A DNA stretch of 64,000 nucleotides, from the sequence record MZ956761.1; one strand, 5' to 3'. The stretch is from a phage. The position numbers and the translations under genes were made by a program. This document shows positions 5,357 to 57,129 of the stretch, one piece after another. Numbering within the stretch: position 1 is the first letter of the stretch; each line of letters opens with the position of its first letter. Under the pieces are notes generated by a model. The model was not told where the DNA came from. It saw nothing but the letters and a program-made list of their open reading frames with translations, and searched no databases.

Positions 5357-6361
5357 ATGTTTAAAAAGTATAGCAGTCTTGAAAATCATTACAACTCTAA
5401 ATTTATTGAAAAACTTTACAGTTTAGGATTGACTGGCGGCGAATGGGTAGCTCGTGAAAAGATTCATGGTACAAATTTCTCGCTAATTATTGAGCGTGAT
5501 AAAGTAACTTGTGCTAAACGTACTGGTCCTATTCTTCCTGCTGAAGATTTCTTTGGGTATGAAATTATTTTGAAGAATTACGCTGATTCCATTAAAGCAG
5601 TACAAGAAATTATGGAAACTTCAGCGGTTGTATCTTATCAAGTCTTTGGTGAATTCGCCGGACCTGGCATTCAGAAGAATGTCGATTATGGTGATAAAGA
5701 TTTTTATGTATTTGACATTATTGTTACTACCGAAAGTGGTGATGTGACTTATGTCGATGATTATATGATGGAATCATTCTGTAATAAATTTAAATTTAAA
5801 ATGGCTCCACTTTTAGGTCGCGGTAAATTTGAAGAGCTGATTAAATTGCCAAATGATTTAGATTCTGTCGTACAGGATTATAATTTTACGGTAGACAATG
5901 CTGGATTAGTTGATGCAAATAAATGCATTTGGAATGCCGAAGCAAAAGGCGAAGTATTTACCGCTGAAGGATATGTATTGAAACCTTGCTATCCTTCTTG
6001 GATGCCTAATGGTAATCGCGTAGCTATCAAATGCAAGAACTCTAAATTCAGTGAAAAGAAAAAGTCTGATAAGCCTATTAAAGCTAAAGTTGAGTTGTCA
6101 GAAGCTGATAATAAATTGCTGGGAATTTTAGCTTGTTACGTTACACTGAACCGAGTAAATAACGTTATTTCTAAAATTGGCGAAATTGGTCCAAAAGATT
6201 TTGGAAAGGTGATGGGACTAACGGTTCAAGATATTTTGGAAGAAACTTCTCGTGAAGGTATTACTCTAACTCAAGCGGATAATCCTTCTTTGATTAAGAA
6301 GGAATTAGTTAAAATGGTACAAGATGTACTTCGTCCGGCTTGGATTGAATTGGTAAGTTAA
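5357..6361 (+). CDS. rnlB: RNA ligase 2
   Basis: 334 aa; nucleotidyltransferase motif I KIHGTN. Confidence 0.9.
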
Positions 6362-6368
6362 ATAAAAA

Positions 6369-6392
6369 GGGACCTTTCGGTCCCTTTGTTTT
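6369..6392. terminator. bidirectional hairpin terminator between rnlB and gene 24
   Basis: GGGACC-TTTC-GGTCCC stem-loop flanked by A-run and T-run. Confidence 0.55.
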
Positions 6393-7674
6393 ATTCATCA
6401 ATGATAATTTTTGGTAGTTTAACACCTAATAAAACAGACAAATCTGAACGACCCGCCATTTTATCCATGTCTCCACCGTCAATTACTCTTGCTTCTTTTT
6501 CATCTTTTGCTACAGTGTAAGGATTTGCAGATAAAGCATATCTAACTAATAAACCGATAGATGGCTGCAAACTTTCTGGATCGACTACAACTTTAAATGC
6601 ACCTACATGTTCAGGGTCATCTAAGTCAAGACCTTCTGTATACGGAGCATAGAAAATTGACCCAACAATTTCTTTTTCACCGATATTTTCTACTACGCCA
6701 ACGATTACATAATCTAATGGGCTGTTGGTATCGCAATAAAGTGGTAAACCATTAGCTAAGAACCCGTAGGCATTTTGTGAAAGATATTTGTCATCTTCTG
6801 GTTTATGTTTTAACCAACCTGATGCAGCAAGAATCGCAGCAGCACGAGCTGAAGCAACACAGAACGTTGCAGTATAAGTTGATTCTTTTTGGATATGCGA
6901 AACCATTTCACATACCATTCGGTATAATGAACGACCAGCTTCAGGCGCAGATGCATAACTCAAATCAATGAATCCAGTATCAGTAATTCCTGTAACTTTA
7001 TAGCGTTTTGACACTGTAATCAAAGACTGCAGAATATCTTTATTGATTTCATCTGCCATTTCGGTTGCAAGCAAATCTTCCAAGAAATTAGGAGCATCGA
7101 ATCCGTTTGCTTCTAAATCTTGTGCTAATTCAACTGTGATGCCAGTTTTAAGTTTACGAGATTTAACTGCGGTTTGCCATTTATTAATCTGGAATCTAGC
7201 ATCCGCAATTTCACTATCAGAGCTTTCAAATTTGCTTGTTACTGCAGCATCAGAAAATAGACGAACCTTTAAAAGAACAATTGCAATCTGAAGAGCTAAT
7301 TCTAAATCACTTTCTTCAATATCAGCAAATGGTGTATCTTCTAATACTTTATAAACGATATTATTATATTTGAATAAATCGCCTTTATTGAGAGTTAATT
7401 TAGACTCTTCTGTTAATTCTGTGATTTGTTCTCGGTCTACGTATCCAGCTTCGCCGGCGTAAGTAGCACCAGTTTTAAATGTAAATTCGTTATCTGGGTT
7501 AAGGTATTTGATACCATAAAAAGCAGCAACAGGTTGATTAGTTCTTTGCGTTGCTACAATGTCAGAATATATTAATTTAGTGGTAGCGCGAGTCAAAGCA
7601 ACGAGATTTGGGCGACCGATTGAGTTGCTATTCGTTGTGGTTGATTCGCGCAGAAGTTCGTTGATTTTAGCCAT
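6391..7674 (-). CDS. 24: gp24 capsid vertex protein
   Basis: 427 aa; next to gene 23. Confidence 0.9.
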   Translation of the reverse strand: MAKINELLRESTTTNSNSIGRPNLVALTRATTKLIYSDIVATQRTNQPVAAFYGIKYLNPDNEFTFKTGATYAGEAGYVDREQITELTEESKLTLNKGDLFKYNNIVYKVLEDTPFADIEESDLELALQIAIVLLKVRLFSDAAVTSKFESSDSEIADARFQINKWQTAVKSRKLKTGITVELAQDLEANGFDAPNFLEDLLATEMADEINKDILQSLITVSKRYKVTGITDTGFIDLSYASAPEAGRSLYRMVCEMVSHIQKESTYTATFCVASARAAAILAASGWLKHKPEDDKYLSQNAYGFLANGLPLYCDTNSPLDYVIVGVVENIGEKEIVGSIFYAPYTEGLDLDDPEHVGAFKVVVDPESLQPSIGLLVRYALSANPYTVAKDEKEARVIDGGDMDKMAGRSDLSVLLGVKLPKIIIDE

Positions 7675-38993: not shown

Positions 38994-39706
38994 ATGAAAC
39001 TAATCTTTTTAAGCGGTGTAAAGCGTAGTGGAAAAGATACTACTGCTGATTTTATCATGAGCAATTATTCTGCAGTTAAATACCAACTTGCTGGTCCTAT
39101 TAAGGATGCATTGGCTTATGCATGGGGAGTATTTGTAGCAAACACTGACTATCCTTGTTTAACTCGTAAAGAGTTTGAAGGAATTGACTATGATCGTGAA
39201 ACTAATTTAAATCTGACTAAATTAGAAGTAATTACGATTATGGAACAAGCATTTTGCTATCTTAATAGTAAAAGCCCAATTAAAGGTGTGTTTGTTTTTG
39301 ATGACGCAGTTAATTTCGTAGCATTTAACAAGATTGCTGACGTTATAAATAATATTGAAGATCAATGGTCAGTCCGTCGTCTGATGCAAGCCCTAGGTAC
39401 GGATTTGATTGTTAATAACTTCGACCGCATGTATTGGGTAAAATTATTTGCTTTAGATTATCTTGATAAATTTAACTCAGGTTATGATTATTATATCGTT
39501 CCTGATACTCGTCAAGATCATGAAATGGATGCGGCTAGGGCGATGGGTGCTACAGTAATTCATGTAGTTCGTCCTGGTCAAAAATCCAATGATACTCATA
39601 TTACAGAAGCTGGATTGCCAATTCGTGATGGCGATTTAGTAATTACAAACGATGGTTCTCTTGAAGAACTTTTTTCTAAAATTAAAAATACACTAAAGGT
39701 ACTATA

Positions 39707-39707
<1 letters not shown>
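38994..39707 (+). CDS. 1: gp1 dNMP kinase
   Basis: 237 aa; P-loop GVKRSGKDT. Confidence 0.85.
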
Positions 39708-40404
<697 letters not shown>

Positions 40405-40416
40405 TTTCACAAAGTT

Positions 40417-40455
40417 GTTTACATGCTGATGAGGTAGTGATACTATTACCTCATC
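40417..40455 (+). promoter_or_regulatory. early promoter with stem-loop (PeSL-like), copy 1
   Basis: GTTTAC, 18-nt spacer, TGaTACTAT; -10 sits inside inverted repeat GATGAGGTA/TACCTCATC. Confidence 0.5.
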
Positions 40456-40476
40456 AAAATTAATTAGGAAAATAAA

Positions 40477-40734
40477 ATGAAAACTTTCAAAGAGTTTGCT
40501 ACAAAAACTATTATCACTGAATCTTCTCATGGTATGGAAGTAAAGCTTGGAATGGCTTTAGCTGAAGCTGAGCGTCTTTTCTCTCGTATTAAAGAACTTG
40601 CTGCTGCAGTCGATCCTTCATCTTTTAAAGGAGACCAAACGAAAGTTAAAGCGCTTTTAGCATTATGCTCTGATGCAGGCGAAATCGCTAAGAACGGTTC
40701 TAAGATGAAGAAACGATTAGAAGATTTAAAATAA
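40477..40734 (+). CDS. internal-protein-like small protein with capsid-targeting tag
   Basis: 85 aa; N-terminus MKTFKEFATKTIITE resembles the T4 IP tag with gp21-type (L/I)xE cleavage site. Confidence 0.55.
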   Translation: MKTFKEFATKTIITESSHGMEVKLGMALAEAERLFSRIKELAAAVDPSSFKGDQTKVKALLALCSDAGEIAKNGSKMKKRLEDLK

Positions 40735-40746
40735 TTTCACAAAGTT

Positions 40747-40785
40747 GTTTACACGGGGTTTTAGTAGTGATACTATTACCCTATC
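40747..40785 (+). promoter_or_regulatory. early promoter with stem-loop (PeSL-like), copy 2
   Basis: Near-identical 40-bp repeat of copy 1, offset 330 bp. Confidence 0.5.
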
Positions 40786-40812
40786 AAAACAAATGTGAGA
40801 TTGGAGAATAAA

Positions 40813-41046
40813 ATGAAAACTTATCAAGAATTTATTGCTGAAACTGCTGATGTAAAAGTTGAGTTTATTTATACTGACAAGAAAGATAAAATGGGTGAAA
40901 TGCCTCATGGAGTTCTTCGCGATGCATTAGATAATTTCGGTCAACTCGCTGCAGAAGATTACGGTGATAAAATTGTTGTTACTGGTCCTGCTGCAGTTAT
41001 TGAAAAATGGGCAGCAGAAAATAAATCAATTTTTCGTAAAAAATAA
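40813..41046 (+). CDS. internal protein (IPI-like) with MKTYQEFIAE tag
   Basis: 77 aa from the Met of MKTYQEFIAE; track ORF starts 6 codons earlier at GTG. Confidence 0.6.
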   Translation: MKTYQEFIAETADVKVEFIYTDKKDKMGEMPHGVLRDALDNFGQLAAEDYGDKIVVTGPAAVIEKWAAENKSIFRKK

Positions 41047-41085
41047 GTTTACTTTTAGATAGGGTAGTGATACTATTACCCTATC
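41047..41085 (+). promoter_or_regulatory. early promoter with stem-loop (PeSL-like), copy 3
   Basis: GTTTAC-N18-TACTAT with inverted repeat GATAGGGTA/TACCCTATC around the -10. Confidence 0.5.
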
Positions 41086-41104
41086 AACTACTGAGGAGAA
41101 TAAA

Positions 41105-41290
41105 ATGAAACGTTGTGAATTAATTCGAAATGTTGCTATTGCAATTTCTGCTTCTGCTTTTAGTTTTTCAATGTTTGTTGGATTTATATGCGGATTATTG
41201 ACTACAGCAGAAAATGTTTTTTCACTTGTAGTAGCATTTTTAATTGGTTTAATTGCTATCGTTATGGATAAAATTTCTAAAGGTGAATAG
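41105..41290 (+). CDS. small two-helix membrane protein
   Basis: 61 aa, two hydrophobic stretches; GAGGAG SD. Confidence 0.45.
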   Translation: MKRCELIRNVAIAISASAFSFSMFVGFICGLLTTAENVFSLVVAFLIGLIAIVMDKISKGE

Positions 41291-41701
41291 ATGAGTATTA
41301 ACGAATATTATGTTTATGCTGGGGATTATGCAAATCCTTCTCATTTTGAAGGTAATTTAATACCTGATAAAGTTTTTAATACTCCTTTTGAAGCGTGGAG
41401 TTGGATTGAAAGTAAAAATGGATTTTCTTACCGTTATGTTGAAGTAACTGATTGGAGAGGAACTAAATATCCTAAAGACCATTATTACGTAAATCCATCT
41501 AAGGTAAATTTTCTTTTATTCGCAGGTGATAATTATTACCCTTGTGGTGGATATGATGATTTAATTGCGTATGCTGAAACAGAAGATAAACTGCGTGATA
41601 TCATTAAAGAAAATGAAAATAAACCAGATTATGGTTCTAATCGCTTTGACTGGTGGCAAATCGTAAATGCCCATACTCATGCTATTGTTGATAGAGGTTG
41701 A
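41291..41701 (+). CDS. hypothetical protein
   Basis: 136-aa ORF, start overlaps previous stop. Confidence 0.5.
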   Translation: MSINEYYVYAGDYANPSHFEGNLIPDKVFNTPFEAWSWIESKNGFSYRYVEVTDWRGTKYPKDHYYVNPSKVNFLLFAGDNYYPCGGYDDLIAYAETEDKLRDIIKENENKPDYGSNRFDWWQIVNAHTHAIVDRG

Positions 41702-41991: not shown

Positions 41992-42088
41992 ATATGCTTT
42001 AAGAATTATTTGTTATTATTAACTCATACCACACTGATTAATACCCTCTATCATCAAGGGTTCTTGTTAGAGAGCCTTTGTTAATAAT

Positions 42089-42161
42089 TGGGAATTAGCC
42101 AAGTTGGTAAGGCATAGCACTTTGACTGCTAGATGCAAAGGTTCGAGTCCTTTATTCCCAG
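42089..42161 (+). tRNA. tRNA-Gln (anticodon TTG)
   Basis: Hand-folded cloverleaf: acceptor TGGGAAT/ATTCCCA, T-loop TTCGAGT, anticodon loop CTTTGAC. Confidence 0.7.
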
Positions 42162-42162
42162 C

Positions 42163-42249
42163 GCGAGAATGGTCAAATTGGTAAAGGCACAGCACTTAAA
42201 ATGCTGCGGAATGATTTCCTTGTGGGTTCGAGTCCCACTTCTCGCACCA
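42163..42249 (+). tRNA. tRNA-Leu (anticodon TAA)
   Basis: Acceptor GCGAGAA/TTCTCGC, long variable arm, encoded CCA. Confidence 0.75.
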
Positions 42250-42254
42250 AATTT

Positions 42255-42328
<74 letters not shown>

Positions 42329-42338
42329 ATTTAATCTA

Positions 42339-42412
42339 CTCCGTGTAGCTCAGTTTGGTAGAGCGCCTGATTTGGGATCAGGAGGTCCAAGGTTCAAATC
42401 CTTGTATGGAGA
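42339..42412 (+). tRNA. tRNA-Pro (anticodon TGG)
   Basis: D-arm TAGCTCAGTTTGGTAGAGC, anticodon loop TTTGGGA, T-loop TTCAAAT. Confidence 0.7.
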
Positions 42413-42414
42413 CT

Positions 42415-42504
42415 GGAGGCGTGGCAGAGTGGTTTAATGCACCGGTCTTGAAAACCGGCAGTCGCTCCGGCGACTCATAGGTTCAAATCCTATCGCCTCC
42501 GCCA
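42415..42504 (+). tRNA. tRNA-Ser (anticodon TGA)
   Basis: Acceptor GGAGGCG/CGCCTCC, long variable arm, anticodon loop CTTGAAA, CCA. Confidence 0.75.
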
Positions 42505-42509
42505 GTTTT

Positions 42510-42585
42510 GCTGATTTAGCTCAGTAGGTAGAGCAACTCACTTGTAATGAGAAGGTCGGCGGTTCGATTCCGTCAATCAGCACCA
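42510..42585 (+). tRNA. tRNA-Thr (anticodon TGT)
   Basis: Acceptor GCTGATT/AATCAGC, anticodon loop CTTGTAA, CCA. Confidence 0.75.
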
Positions 42586-42586
42586 A

Positions 42587-42661
42587 GGCCCTGTAGCTGG
42601 AAGGTTCAAGCAAGCGACTCATAATCGCCAGATGGTGGTTCAATTCCACCCAGGGCCACCA
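42587..42661 (+). tRNA. tRNA with CAT anticodon (Ile2-type or Met)
   Basis: Acceptor GGCCCTG/CAGGGCC, anticodon loop CTCATAA, CCA. Confidence 0.65.
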
Positions 42662-42674
42662 AATTAAGAATTAA

Positions 42675-42761
42675 GGGGAGTTATCCCGTAGAGGTAGCGG
42701 TGTGGACTGTAAATCCATTGTCATTGCGACTCGGGTGGTTCGACTCCATCACTCCCCACCA
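42675..42761 (+). tRNA. tRNA-Tyr (anticodon GTA), type II
   Basis: Perfect 7-bp acceptor GGGGAGT/ACTCCCC, anticodon loop CTGTAAA, long variable arm, T-loop TTCGACT, CCA. Confidence 0.6.
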
Positions 42762-42765
42762 ATTT

Positions 42766-42840
42766 GGATGTGTAGCTCAATGGCAGAGCGATCGCCTGTT
42801 AAGCGATTGGTTATAGGTTCGAATCCTATCACGTCCGCCA
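42766..42840 (+). tRNA. tRNA-Asn (anticodon GTT)
   Basis: Acceptor GGATGTG/CACGTCC, anticodon loop CTGTTAA, T-loop TTCGAAT, CCA. Confidence 0.65.
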
Positions 42841-42954
42841 AATTTGTGACAACTGTCACATTAATATCTACTTGACGCGATTATAGGGGTTGAACTGATC
42901 ACTCTTCTCTTAATTTCGTGTGAAGACATCTTGATTGTTGGAGTAGGTATTAAT

Positions 42955-43030
42955 GTGGCCGTAGTTCAGTTGGTAGAACTCGAGATTGTGATTCTCGTAG
43001 TCATGGGTTCGACTCCCATCGGTCACCCCA
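42955..43030 (+). tRNA. tRNA-His (anticodon GTG)
   Basis: Acceptor GTGGCCG/CGGTCAC, anticodon loop TTGTGAT, T-loop TTCGACT, CCA. Confidence 0.6.
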
Positions 43031-43034
43031 ATTA

Positions 43035-43110
43035 CGGGGCATAGCTCAGAAGGAAGAGCAAGGACCTTCTAAGTCCTAGGTCGTAGGTTCGATCCCTACT
43101 GCCTCGACCA
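43035..43110 (+). tRNA. tRNA-Arg (anticodon TCT)
   Basis: D-arm TAGCTCAGAAGGAAGAGC, anticodon loop CTTCTAA, T-loop TTCGATC, CCA. Confidence 0.7.
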
Positions 43111-43818: not shown

Positions 43819-43826
43819 TATAAATA
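43819..43826 (+). promoter_or_regulatory. T4-type late promoter (TATAAATA)
   Basis: Exact TATAAATA about 37 bp upstream of the ATG at 43863. Confidence 0.45.
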
Positions 43827-43862: not shown

Positions 43863-44336
43863 ATGAAATCATATGCTCAATTTTTAAATGAAGCGGTGTT
43901 AAATGAAGCATCTAGCACCGAAATTCAAGCTGTTGCAAAAGCTGCCATTGCCGCGGGTAAATATTCCTATAAGGATGCTTCCGATGAATCACGATTCCAA
44001 TTTGCTCGTGATATGAAAGCCGAAGGATTTACAGGGAATGCAGTTAGTATGGCTTGGAAAAGTTTAGTTGCTACTGGAGCTGCTTTTGCAAAGGCTTCAG
44101 GTAAACCTGCTCCTAAGGCTGACCCTAAAGCAGCACAAGAAAAAAATATTGCTAAAGGAATTATCTCTAGGTATGAAGCAATTCTTAAAGAACTTTTGAT
44201 AATTAAGACCGAAGGCCAGAAACTTGCGCGAGCTCATAGTTTCAAAGATAATCCACATGCTCATGACCTAGAGTATGTTGAAGACATCCAAAAAATTATT
44301 AAAGACCGCATTTGGTCTGCTAAACAAATCAAATAA
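43863..44336 (+). CDS. capsid-targeting-tag protein (internal-protein-like), 157 aa
   Basis: N-terminus MKSYAQFLNE resembles the IP tag MKTYQEFIAE; late promoter upstream; flanked by identical 31-bp repeats. Confidence 0.5.
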   Translation: MKSYAQFLNEAVLNEASSTEIQAVAKAAIAAGKYSYKDASDESRFQFARDMKAEGFTGNAVSMAWKSLVATGAAFAKASGKPAPKADPKAAQEKNIAKGIISRYEAILKELLIIKTEGQKLARAHSFKDNPHAHDLEYVEDIQKIIKDRIWSAKQIK

Positions 44337-48381: not shown

Positions 48382-48912
<531 letters not shown>

Positions 48913-48916
48913 AGTT

Positions 48917-48946
48917 GTTTACTTTCTCCTAGAATTGTGATAGTAT
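48917..48946 (+). promoter_or_regulatory. T4-type early promoter
   Basis: GTTTAC-N18-TGaTAGTAT upstream of the internal-protein gene. Confidence 0.45.
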
Positions 48947-48983
48947 ATTCACAGTTACTAATTAAAATATTTAAAGGAAACAC

Positions 48984-49301
48984 ATGAAAACGTATAAAGA
49001 ATTTATTGCAGAATCTGCTGCAGGACAACGTGTAGAAGGCGGTTATATCTGGATTGAACAAGTTGAGCCGCCGAGTCGCACTTCTACGGGTAAATGGAAA
49101 ATCACTGTTGATGGTCCTGGTGGTAAACGTAGGACTCTTAAAGAAATTAACGGGTACTATGAAGAAGCTCTTTCTGACGCGGGTACTTATATGATGCAAA
49201 TCATGATTAAAAACCCAGAAAATCGTTTTGCGGCTAGAGTTTTCCGCCGTATTGGAAATAAGCTTTATGATGCATATTCTAAAAACTTTCCTAAAGAATA
49301 A
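48984..49301 (+). CDS. internal head protein (IPII/IPIII-type)
   Basis: 105 aa; N-terminal MKTYKEFIAE capsid-targeting tag. Confidence 0.7.
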   Translation: MKTYKEFIAESAAGQRVEGGYIWIEQVEPPSRTSTGKWKITVDGPGGKRRTLKEINGYYEEALSDAGTYMMQIMIKNPENRFAARVFRRIGNKLYDAYSKNFPKE

Positions 49302-49317
49302 AAATTAAAGGATACAC

Positions 49318-49791
49318 ATGAAAACATATCAAGAATTTATTACTGAAGCAGCTATTAATTCTCAAATTATTGCTGAATCTTTTACTGATCTTTTGAAATT
49401 TAAAAAAGGTCAAAAAATCACTGCTGTATTGGATGATGGTACAGAAGTTGAGATGGATGTACAGGGATATAATTATGCAGTAGATGGAAAACTGTATAAT
49501 AAATCTCATGCTAAATTTGATTCATTTGACGACTTTGTTAATACAGTTGAAGATGAAAAAACTCGTAGATCCATTGCAACTGGTGATGCTAAGGTTCTTA
49601 TGGCACATGGTCATGAACGCATTCGCGCTAAACAGAATAAAATGGGTGAAGATAATTTTGCATTAGTTGGTTATCAATCTGGTAAACAAACTTATGGCTA
49701 TCAGCGTACTGCTACCATGTATAACAAAAATGGTAAAATCGCTTTCGTGAATAGCAAAGGCTCTATTCAGTACGTCAAATCATTCAAATAA
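49318..49791 (+). CDS. internal head protein (IPII/IPIII-type)
   Basis: 157 aa; N-terminal MKTYQEFITE capsid-targeting tag. Confidence 0.7.
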   Translation: MKTYQEFITEAAINSQIIAESFTDLLKFKKGQKITAVLDDGTEVEMDVQGYNYAVDGKLYNKSHAKFDSFDDFVNTVEDEKTRRSIATGDAKVLMAHGHERIRAKQNKMGEDNFALVGYQSGKQTYGYQRTATMYNKNGKIAFVNSKGSIQYVKSFK

Positions 49792-56967: not shown

Positions 56968-57010
56968 GTTTACAAGTTGACAAGGTTATGGTATAGTAAT
57001 CTTGTCAACT
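56968..57010 (+). promoter_or_regulatory. T4-type early promoter with flanking inverted repeat
   Basis: GTTTAC-N18-TGgTATAGT; AGTTGACAAG/CTTGTCAACT arms around the -10. Confidence 0.5.
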
Positions 57011-57129
57011 GCCAAGGAGAAGAGAATGAAAGTTTTGTTTGTTGTGTATGTGATGATTCAATATAATTACCCAATGTTTACTTATAATTTGGTAAACAAC
57101 ATTATTGATATGATTCAGAGGAGTATGTA

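Follow-up and report, generated by a model that had tools for sequence, protein, structure and literature searches.

The DNA analysed here, called the window in the following, is a stretch of 64,000 nt of phage sequence (record MZ956761.1), and between two conserved genes in it lies a short region in which the same promoter-like unit with an inverted repeat is found before each of several small genes. This raises three questions: what kind of locus this is, what its small proteins may do, and whether the inverted repeats are maintained by selection and for what. The locus, its cassettes and the genes ip5 and ip6 are already described in the literature. The reading to which we give a probability of roughly 0.85, the mechanism set out below included, is that a T6/PST-like Tequatrovirus has its first internal-protein (IP) locus here, with ip5 and ip6 in place of the ipI of T4 and with a cassette of the 'promoter-early stem-loop' kind (PeSL-like) before each of ip5, ip6 and trna.4. 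The genes and the leaders of their products are the following.

39949..40404, plus strand: gene 57B (Acb1, anti-CBASS phosphodiesterase); Pfam Acb1, E = 2.6e-60, annotated in phage ADUt as anti-CBASS protein
40477..40734, plus strand: ip5 ('ipV' in PST), 85 aa; phrog_3499, E = 8e-50, UniRef Ip5 in RB70 and T2
40477-40521, plus strand: leader of ip5, IPI-type MKTFKEFATKTIITE, predicted gp21 cleavage after E15
40813..41046, plus strand: ip6 ('ipVI' in PST), 77 aa; phrog_8111, E = 2e-51, named Ip6
40813-40842, plus strand: leader of ip6, canonical MKTYQEFIAE, predicted cleavage after E10
41105..41290, plus strand: trna.4 homologue, 61 aa, predicted membrane protein with no targeting leader; phrog_1692, PST note 'tRNA.4'

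Escherichia phage ADUt matches the window at 100% identity; for T6 and Yersinia phage PST the identity over the whole query is 96.5-96.7%. Compared with T6, Ip5 is identical at 84 of 85 residues (I12 for T12 in the leader) and Ip6 at 75 of 77, both differences being in the body. The PHROG families of the two genes are labelled 'internal head protein' and 'internal virion protein' (E about 1e-50), and the names Ip5 and Ip6 are in use in UniRef and GenBank for RB70, T2, VR26 and PST; Pfam and NCBIfam hold no family for either protein. The variable locus is bordered by 57B on the left and trna.4 on the right, both of them conserved. At the same position T4 has ipI only, with trna.4 likewise in place, which agrees with the sequence-only reading of this DNA, where IPI had been named as the single T4 protein at the locus. 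Ip5 and Ip6 are present in hundreds of sequenced phages, and about 800 Tevenvirinae records in GenBank match the locus.

The cassettes, and the longer repeats of which two of them form a part, are located as follows.

40389..40497, plus strand: direct repeat copy A, with the end and stop of 57B, A/T-rich region, cassette 1, Shine-Dalgarno sequence and codons 1-7 of ip5
40417..40457, plus strand: cassette 1, predicted early promoter with -35 element GTTTAC at 40417-40422 and extended -10 TGATACTAT at 40438-40446
40427-40436 and 40447-40456, plus strand: stem arms of cassette 1, from inverted-repeat and folding analysis
40719..40833, plus strand: direct repeat copy B, running from the end and stop of ip5 over cassette 2 and the Shine-Dalgarno sequence into the first codons of ip6
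40747..40787, plus strand: cassette 2, predicted promoter as in cassettes 1 and 3, stem-loop degenerate and shifted
40755-40759/40778-40782 plus 40762-40766/40771-40775, plus strand: stem arms of cassette 2, from RNA folding
41047..41087, plus strand: cassette 3, predicted early promoter, stem of 9 bp without mismatch, arms 41058-41066 / 41077-41085

These are three direct-repeat copies of a 41-nt unit with 78-80% mutual identity, each followed 47-57 nt downstream by an ATG (40477, 40813 and 41105) with a Shine-Dalgarno sequence. Copies 1 and 2 are included in a longer direct repeat of 76 nt with 84% identity, which grows to about 110 nt with the first 7 codons and also takes in the last codons of the upstream gene (DLK, stop). 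The sequence-only reading had placed a three-copy unit at 40417, 40747 and 41047, each before a small gene, and so much of it is correct. Its literal pattern, GTTTAC with an 18-nt spacer to TGATACTAT, had 0 matches and was rejected: the spacer to TGATACTAT is 15 nt, and 18 nt is the distance from GTTTAC to the hexamer TACTAT (17 nt in the form TTTACA...TACTAT). The corrected pattern, GTTTAC-N15-TGATACTAT, occurs exactly three times in the 64 kb, whereas in 100 shuffles the count was 0.00. Each copy has the form TTTAC(A/T)-N17-TACTAT, with TG upstream, and fits the T4/PST early-promoter consensus TTTACW-N17-TAYWAT (PMC4122927). Upstream of the cassettes the region is A/T-rich (AAAATAATTTCACAAAGTT, TTTTTCGTAAAAAATAA). 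The T4 ipI promoter region is practically identical to cassette 1, almost base for base, and in the annotation of Yersinia phage fPS-65 early promoters are predicted at the three corresponding sites. This supports the prediction that the three units are T4-type early promoters, with a probable transcription start of cassette 1 near 40453. Judged by the consensus, host sigma-70 RNA polymerase would fire each cassette immediately after infection, making each gene an autonomous early unit, including trna.4 behind the third cassette.

Comparison with relatives shows how such a locus changes. Among 37 related genomes, the interval from 57B to trna.4 contains anything from no leader-bearing gene to at least 4 of them, altogether 61 genes with 17 families of bodies. 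The relative L035 has no ip5, and both of the window's repeats, 40389-40497 and 40719-40833, map by blastn to its single cassette. In L034 one unrelated body of 102 aa replaces ip5 and ip6 together; identity to the window is lost after codon 7 (40497) and resumes exactly at 41047. In the T4 cassette preceding trna.4, the 5' half is that of cassette 2 and the 3' half that of cassette 3, and chimeric cassettes with mismatched arms were found. A relative of the Ip5 body (54% identity) occurs in a Mosigvirus, with a standard leader, at the other IP locus. The cassettes are intergenic elements of a hyperplastic region, and in these sequence alignments the breakpoints against close relatives (L035, L034 and T4) are seen to fall exactly at cassettes and leader codons. 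Cassette and conserved leader codons together amount to 40-110 nt of shared sequence, and it is by way of these that gene bodies are inserted, deleted and replaced between phages.

The second question concerns the products. Both had been noted to begin with the capsid-targeting tag of T4 internal proteins, and this is well founded: MKTFKEF, with which Ip5 starts exactly as T4 IPI does, and MKTYQEFIAE of Ip6 match the leader consensus of the 61 genes at the locus, M-K-T-Y/F-x-E-F-I/L-x-E, in which E10 is present in 56 of the 61. Targeting by such leaders depends on residues 4 and 7, and their processing on residues 8 and 10 (PMC9026906); Ip5 and Ip6 both carry a capsid-targeting sequence with the targeting residues at 4 and 7. 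Both also possess the gp21 motif (Ile/Leu-x-Glu) that ends a propeptide of 10-19 residues, as I8-A9-E10 in Ip6 and as I13-T14-E15 in Ip5, the latter matching the I-T-E of T4 IPI at residue 19. Members of the Ip5 family differ in the leader, a 5-aa indel among the differences, while from T14-E15-S16 onward the sequence is nearly invariant. By homology with T4 IPI-III, the leader would target both proteins to the prohead core, the prohead protease gp21 would cut it after Glu (E15 in Ip5, E10 in Ip6), and some hundreds of copies would be injected with the DNA. From these features we infer that Ip5 and Ip6 are packaged and processed.

The predicted mature proteins differ in character, Ip5 having 70 aa and being basic (pI 9.2), Ip6 having 67 aa and being acidic (pI 5.7). 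Structure prediction, which the sequence-only reading had proposed as a check, did deliver AlphaFold models, a helical hairpin for Ip5 (AF2, pLDDT 74) and a small alpha/beta fold for Ip6 (pLDDT 71), built on shallow alignments of 5 and 8 sequences, respectively. However, Foldseek against the PDB returned for these models only generic helical-hairpin or ferredoxin-like matches with E above 0.03, from which no function was inferred. A PDB sequence search with both proteins at E up to 10 gave unrelated proteins only. Neither in these searches nor in the models at pLDDT 71-74 did mature Ip5 or Ip6 show a likeness in sequence or fold to IPI* or to another protein of solved structure.

What the proteins would do once injected is suggested by an analogy. 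The specificity of Ip1, Ip2 and Ip3 is strictly one-to-one, each of them blocking a GmrSD enzyme of its own, and Silas et al. 2025 (PMC12373910) put forward variants of type IV restriction enzymes as the targets of Ip-locus proteins. The sequence-only reading had likewise seen in the alleles found here candidates for anti-restriction functions. As for Ip1-3, injected Ip5 and Ip6 would neutralise a host defence, most plausibly a variant of type IV restriction. The strongest competing explanation, which we consider the less probable one but take seriously, is that Ip5 and Ip6 are not anti-restriction proteins and act instead in DNA-associated packing or ejection, or in another defence or host function outside type IV restriction. 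Indeed, T6 and T2 carry Ip5/Ip6 and are nevertheless restricted by GmrSD-ECOR21 and GmrSD-ECOR17, and ip4-10, assayed against further GmrSD variants, gave no reproducible inhibition (PMC12373910), so that the target of Ip5/Ip6 may not be a GmrSD enzyme at all. Moreover, IPIII also contributes to head assembly (PMC9026906), and the product of the neighbouring gene 57B counters CBASS, another kind of defence. On the other hand, each of the three T4 Ips that have been characterised is an inhibitor of GmrSD enzymes, a family of great diversity (PMC12373910). Since Ips act strictly one-to-one in the face of such diversity, negatives on a handful of variants are weak evidence. The acidic character of mature Ip6 is, furthermore, a poor fit to a DNA-condensing role.

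The third question is that of the inverted repeats. Cassette 1 holds a perfect 10-bp inverted repeat, TGATGAGGTA/TACCTCATCA, and cassette 3 a perfect 9-bp one, GATAGGGTA/TACCCTATC; in both, 10 nt containing most of the extended -10 separate the arms. RNA folding yields -17.4 kcal/mol (z = -5.7) for copy 1 and -16.4 kcal/mol (z = -4.5) for copy 3. Their stems differ at two adjacent pairs, both compensated. Cassette 2 has the same 3' arm as cassette 3 (TACCCTATC) but nothing on the 5' side that would pair with it in that register, and its fold is another, interrupted stem (GGGGU/ACCCU plus UAGUA/UACUA, -14.6 kcal/mol). In T4, T6, L035 and other relatives this cassette has an intact ATAGGGT...ACCCTAT, 6 nt further upstream, and in the window two uncompensated changes at that place have produced ACGGGGT. 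An inverted repeat with compensated arms, as claimed from the sequence, is thus present in copies 1 and 3 and absent from copy 2.

The claim that the stem is selected is borne out by a larger set. In 39 unselected cassettes from the locus, 63.8% of cells pair in the register proposed by the sequence-only reading, compared with 31-48% after a shift of the 3' partner by 1-3 columns; changes on both sides occur at 9 of the 10 stem pairs, and not one of 500 shuffles reached the observed pairing or covariation score. A Watson-Crick run of at least 6 is found in 27 of 50 cassettes, against 6.3 in shuffles. Examples of covarying arms, each with a matching 3' arm, are GATGAGGTA, GATAGGGTA, GGTAGGACTA, GAGGGCTA and TAGGGATA, and the stem occupies at least three registers relative to the promoter. 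Further covarying stems exist in other T4-like contigs: a scan of IMG/VR with the exact promoter pattern gave mostly chance matches on unrelated contigs with Watson-Crick runs of at most 5, used as an informal control, and a minority of matches that are additional T4-like cassettes with new compensated stems. A search of Rfam with 40200-41300 had no match. Selection on the stem acts on base pairing and not on sequence. The stem is poor in cassette 2 of this phage, as it also is in several chimeric cassettes found elsewhere, which makes it dispensable at least in the short term.

Regarding its role, the geometry of promoter and stem is informative. The 5' arm lies within the promoter spacer and the 3' arm would span about -6 to +4. 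As transcription would start within the 3' arm, only read-through transcripts from upstream, or DNA, can fold into the stem. As the hairpin is absent from the cassette's own transcript, an effect on promoter activity, for which the sequence-only reading had proposed a test, is not its most likely role. The stem would rather attenuate or end-stabilise transcripts coming from upstream and so insulate the units from each other. We regard this as the most likely function, and it is the least certain step of the whole reading.

Three other roles for the stem were weighed. That it acts in DNA, as a hairpin or cruciform serving as a structure-specific substrate for recombination or mini-circle excision in the manner of attC, is unlikely. 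It would agree with the conservation of pairing without conservation of sequence, with the breakpoints at the cassettes, the chimeric junctions lying inside the shared TGATACTAT core, and with the PeSL mini-circles detected in RB49 and phi1 (PMC2839356). But homologous recombination across the 40-110 nt of shared sequence accounts for the same breakpoints, and we know of no dedicated recombinase. In addition, G.T outnumbers A.C among the interruptions of good stems (9 vs 4 overall, 5 vs 0 in the two main registers), which in so small and non-independent a sample is only a hint towards plus-strand RNA, where G.T is tolerated. Even less likely, in our estimate, is the far-reaching version, by which the covarying stem is an attC-like structure-specific recombination site and the IP loci are an integrase-less cassette system capturing injected anti-defence genes, with Ip5 or Ip6, separately, countering a defence that lies outside the GmrSD family.

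We also think it improbable that the stems are strong transcription terminators like the G+C-rich PeSLs of RB49 and phi1, in one of which the stem-loop lowered lacZ expression to an extent comparable with the rrnB T1 terminator (PMC2839356). The cassette stems are stable enough (-16 to -17 kcal/mol), but no U-tract follows them, the downstream sequences being AAAATTAATT and AACTACTGAG, and a terminator scan found none at the cassettes, which makes a classical intrinsic terminator unlikely. Even Arbiol et al. regard the elements that accompany T-even IP genes as weaker analogues and not as homologues (PMC2839356). Furthermore, internal proteins are needed late in infection at roughly 360 copies per head (PMC9026906), and the nearest upstream late-promoter-like TATAAATA is at 39344; late expression may thus depend on read-through across the stems.

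Finally, the stem could be an operator, at which a dimeric phage or host protein would bind the palindrome and shut the early promoters off. Repressor sites classically have their inverted repeat centred on the -10 box, as here, and T4 early promoters are indeed shut off within minutes, but we rejected this idea as highly improbable because a protein site would conserve sequence and position and not pairing, whereas the arms here change between copies yet stay complementary, in at least three registers.

Attenuation or end-stabilisation of upstream transcripts by an RNA stem is kept as part of the preferred reading, which adds no new kind of system to those known. The locus was reportedly described in 1994, its shuffling by PeSLs was formalised in 2010-2014, and a functional basis was reportedly supplied in 2007 and, by Silas et al., in 2025. 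PeSL cassettes of T4-type phages were treated by Arbiol et al. 2010 (PMC2839356) and by Comeau et al. 2014 (PMC4122927), the latter including an analysis of PST, which has the same locus at 96.5% identity. The likeness extends to the order of elements, an A/T-rich region, an early promoter, a stem-loop between or over its boxes, and then Shine-Dalgarno sequence and start codon, as well as to their repetition in a hyperplastic region adjoining insertions, deletions and replacements. A stable stem-loop adjoining or overlapping the promoter boxes is found in copies 1 and 3, and copy 2 has only its shifted, interrupted stem. In RB49 and phi1 the PeSLs have sigma-70 boxes that are close to perfect, and terminator activity has been demonstrated for their G+C-rich stems, whereas the window's stems, known here from their sequence, are A/T-richer and have no U-tract.

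With the polymorphic IP loci of T-even phages, including ip5 and ip6 (Repoila et al. 1994, EMBO J 13:4181, as cited in PMC2839356, PMC3012670 and PMC12373910), the window shares the same locus, the same conserved leader and unrelated bodies, and as far as these citing papers describe them nothing substantive differs here. Like IPI*, Ip2 and Ip3 of T4, Ip5 and Ip6 are small leader-targeted proteins encoded at the same two loci, and Ip5 has the IPI-type long leader ending in ITE. The mature bodies differ from IPI* in having no similarity of sequence or fold, and of the three GmrSD enzymes that have been characterised, two restrict T6 in spite of its Ip5 and Ip6. To integron attC cassettes there is an analogy only, in small unrelated adaptive genes, imperfect palindromes with conserved pairing and a variable number of genes; the IP locus has no integrase, each unit has its own promoter, and exchange is adequately explained by homologous recombination. 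The locus is a phage anti-defence hotspot of the textbook kind: thanks to a conserved promoter cassette and a conserved targeting leader, small proteins without relation to one another can pass from phage to phage, and the internal proteins so exchanged would enter the cell along with the DNA.

The region around the first internal-protein (IP) locus has a T4-like gene order on the plus strand, and behind the last ORF listed here two more small ORFs lead to a tRNA cluster:

38994–39707, plus strand, gene 1
39707–39949, plus strand, 57A
39949–40404, plus strand, 57B (Pfam Acb1, E = 2.6e-60)
40477–40734, plus strand, ip5, an ORF of 85 aa
40813–41046, plus strand, ip6, an ORF of 77 aa
41105–41290, plus strand, trna.4 homologue, a membrane protein of 61 aa

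Escherichia phage ADUt is 100% identical over 39949–41300 (1352 nt), T6 and Yersinia phage PST align over its full length at 96.5–96.7% identity, and at least 80% of it is covered in 235 of the 793 matching GenBank phage records. The tRNA cluster at 42081–43110 (ADUt annotation; 5641–6659 of locus L001) holds 11 tRNA genes and lacks the homing-endonuclease gene segB, which in T4 accompanies 8 tRNA genes at the equivalent position.

A repeat finder returned a 41-nt family with three copies, at 40417, 40747 and 41047, upstream of ip5, ip6 and the trna.4 homologue, respectively. These are the positions given by the sequence-only reading for its promoter unit, but the spacer to TGATACTAT is 15 nt and not 18: the pattern with 18 nt before TGATACTAT has no match in the window, while GTTTAC-N15-TGATACTAT matches exactly three times, against none in 100 shuffles. 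With three mismatches allowed, 15 matches were found where 3.3 are expected, and the surplus are the window's other early promoters. The Shine-Dalgarno sequences of ip6 (40803–40806) and trna.4 (41095–41098) include GGAG, at which the T4 endoribonuclease RegB cleaves early mRNAs; that of ip5 (AGGAAA) is without it.

Copy 1 forms a perfect stem of 10 bp (RNA fold -17.4 kcal/mol, z = -5.7) and copy 3 one of 9 bp (-16.4 kcal/mol, z = -4.5), both with 10 nt between the arms, around the -10 box. The two stems are distinguished by two neighbouring pairs, each with compensating changes in both arms. Complementary arms with compensated differences, as originally claimed, are thus found in copies 1 and 3, but not in copy 2, whose stem is shifted and interrupted (-14.6 kcal/mol): its 3' arm is the one of copy 3, but the 5' partner lies out of place and pairs imperfectly. 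T4, T6 and two metagenomic relatives read ATAGGGT...ACCCTAT at this position, compared with which ACGGGGT in this phage carries two uncompensated changes. The spacers of cassettes 2 (40753–40767) and 3 (41053–41067) show an apparent exchange of two hexamers, TTTTAG+ATAGGG in cassette 3 and ATAGGG+TTTTAG in the intact cassette 2 of T4, T6 and the related locus L035, which puts the identical 5' arm 6 nt further upstream in the latter. Elsewhere, an early-promoter-like site at 56968–57017, preceding a small ORF that starts MKVLFVVYVM, has a perfect 10-bp stem (GTTGACAAGGTTATGGTATAGTAATCTTGTCAAC, -19.6 kcal/mol) in the register of cassettes 1 and 3, a register that none of the other early-promoter-like sites in the window (11 in all) shares.

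Selection acts on the pairing of the cassette stem. From 36 IMG/VR loci encoding 57B relatives (74–100% identity, plus one distant match) and the window, every early-promoter-like site just 3' of 57B was extracted regardless of pairing, which yielded 50 unique cassettes. Of these, 27 have six or more consecutive Watson-Crick pairs around the -10 box (shuffled mean 6.3, maximum 12), and the runs cluster in few registers: 13 cassettes share the one first described, the commonest, and 5 the next, which is displaced by 6 nt upstream. To count pairing and covariation, the 39 cassettes whose spacing is 15 nt were aligned without gaps, and the 10 pairs of the first-described register were scored. There, 63.8% of cells are paired, compared with 31–48% when the 3' partner is slid by 1–3 columns; two-sided changes occur at 9 of 10 pairs, and none of 500 shuffles reached the observed pairing or covariation score. 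The arms GATGAGGTA, GATAGGGTA, GGTAGGACTA, GAGGGCTA and TAGGGATA all differ, each with its own complement. Therefore, the view that the stem is selected holds, and since selection is on pairing, a protein operator is ruled out as its role. Scanning IMG/VR with the promoter pattern gave further stems in T4-like contigs, and in unrelated contigs it hit chance matches, whose runs mostly do not exceed 5.

In cassette 1 the -10 hexamer ends at 40446. Transcription by sigma-70 starts about 7 nt downstream of this hexamer, which would place the start near 40453, within the 3' arm; the cassette's own mRNA would thus lack the 5' arm, and a hairpin could form solely in DNA or on transcripts arriving from upstream. 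The stems lack a downstream U-tract, and a terminator scan gave no match at the cassettes. Interruptions within good stems are G.T rather than A.C in 9 versus 4 cases (5 versus 0 in the two main registers), a weak hint of plus-strand RNA structure. We favour a hairpin that would act as attenuator or 3'-end stabiliser and so insulate the units. Arbiol et al. (PMC2839356) demonstrated terminator activity for the promoter-early stem-loops (PeSLs) of RB49 and phi1, of which they regard the T-even IP-associated elements as weaker, A/T-richer analogues.

The IP locus is a hotspot of gene shuffling: from 0 to at least 4 genes separate 57B from the trna.4 homologue in the window and its 36 relatives. 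Nearly all of these genes start M-K-T-Y/F-x-E-F-I/L-x-E, and the 61 captured belong to 17 body families unrelated to one another. Cassette copies 1 and 2 form part of a longer direct repeat, spanning the final codons and stop of the upstream gene up to codons 1–7 of the downstream one. L035 is without ip5, and 40389–40497 and 40719–40833 both align to its single cassette; therefore ip5 is a unit of 330 bp between direct repeats of about 110 nt. In another relative, L034, one unrelated gene of 102 aa replaces ip5 and ip6: identity to the window (97.5%) ends after codon 7 (40497) and restarts (98.8%) precisely where cassette 3 begins, at 41047. T4 carries ipI alone, as had been stated; the first of its cassettes is nearly the same as cassette 1, and the second is a hybrid whose 5' half is that of cassette 2 and whose 3' half is that of cassette 3. 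Further chimeric cassettes in related phages (L027 at 4823 and 4490, L020 at 5195 and 4864) combine arms from different cassette types, so that the arms are unpaired and the stem is broken, with the junction inside the shared TGATACTAT core.

That ip5 and ip6 are tag-bearing internal-protein genes is borne out by their leaders and by matches to phrog_3499 'internal head protein' (Ip5, 8e-50; ipV in PST) and phrog_8111 'internal virion protein' (Ip6, 2e-51; ipVI in PST). The Ip5 body occurs in 495 GenBank phage records (269 at 90% identity or more), that of Ip6 in 231; the mature forms have a pI of 9.2 and 5.7, respectively. Structure prediction, suggested earlier as a check, gave AlphaFold models of a helical hairpin for Ip5 (pLDDT 74) and of a small beta-alpha-beta-beta-alpha-beta fold for Ip6 (pLDDT 71), but neither matches IPI* or anything specific. 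Propeptides of internal proteins comprise 10–19 residues, of which 4 and 7 serve targeting and 8 and 10 processing (review of Black's work, PMC9026906). Ip6 starts MKTYQEFIAE. The Ip5 leader has 15 residues, ends ITE and resembles the 19-residue leader of T4 IPI, MKTFKEFTSTTTPVSTITE; within the family it is variable, including a 5-aa indel, and the sequence from T14-E15-S16 onward is almost invariant, which fits a predicted cleavage after E15.

A relative of the mature Ip5 body (54% identity, annotated hypothetical) lies at 1438–1719 of L162, from the Mosigvirus Escherichia phage vB_EcoM_G53, where it occupies the other IP locus, flanked by lysozyme e and denV, and has a standard 10-residue leader, MKTYSEFLSE. 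Thus, this body family occurs at both IP loci with different leaders. Ip5-body matches below 60% identity come from 226 phage records, and those sampled are at about 54%. The window's own second IP locus (48917–49791), directly 3' of lysozyme e (48418–48912), has an early-promoter-like site at 48917 and two leader-bearing genes:

48984–49301, first leader-bearing gene, 105 aa, MKTYKEFIAES...
49318–49791, second leader-bearing gene, 157 aa, MKTYQEFITEA...

Furthermore, a 157-aa ORF at 43863–44336 (phrog_2280, a family of unknown function) starts MKSYAQFLNEAVLNEA, similar to the targeting leader, and is preceded by a late-promoter-like TATAAATA at 43819. Its product may also be packaged, as a protein encoded away from both classical IP loci.

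PeSLs were defined by Arbiol et al. 2010 (PMC2839356), who credit Repoila et al. 1994 with having noticed PeSL-like sequences at both of the variable IP loci in T-even phages. In PST itself, Comeau et al. 2014 (PMC4122927) described PeSLs whose promoters follow the consensus TTTACW-N17-TAYWAT, and reported five differences from T4 in the IPs. T-even internal proteins are diverse defence proteins with only the targeting sequence in common (Rao and Black 2010). The anti-restriction candidacy put forward from the sequence resembles the proposal of Silas et al. 2025 (PMC12373910) that variants of one immune family are the targets of proteins from both Ip loci. In their work, Ip1, Ip2 and Ip3 inhibited one GmrSD enzyme each, a different one in every case, and ip4–10 gave no reproducible inhibition of further GmrSD variants. 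T6 encodes Ip5 (84 of 85 residues identical) and Ip6 (75 of 77), yet is restricted by GmrSD-ECOR21 and GmrSD-ECOR17 in the same study; therefore neither protein protects against these two. Summarizing, the sequence-only reading is real in its observations except for the spacer count and the copy 2 stem, and sound in its interpretation, of which every element is already published; both genes are already named. What Ip5 and Ip6 target and what the hairpin does merit experiments, but the locus is not a new kind of system.
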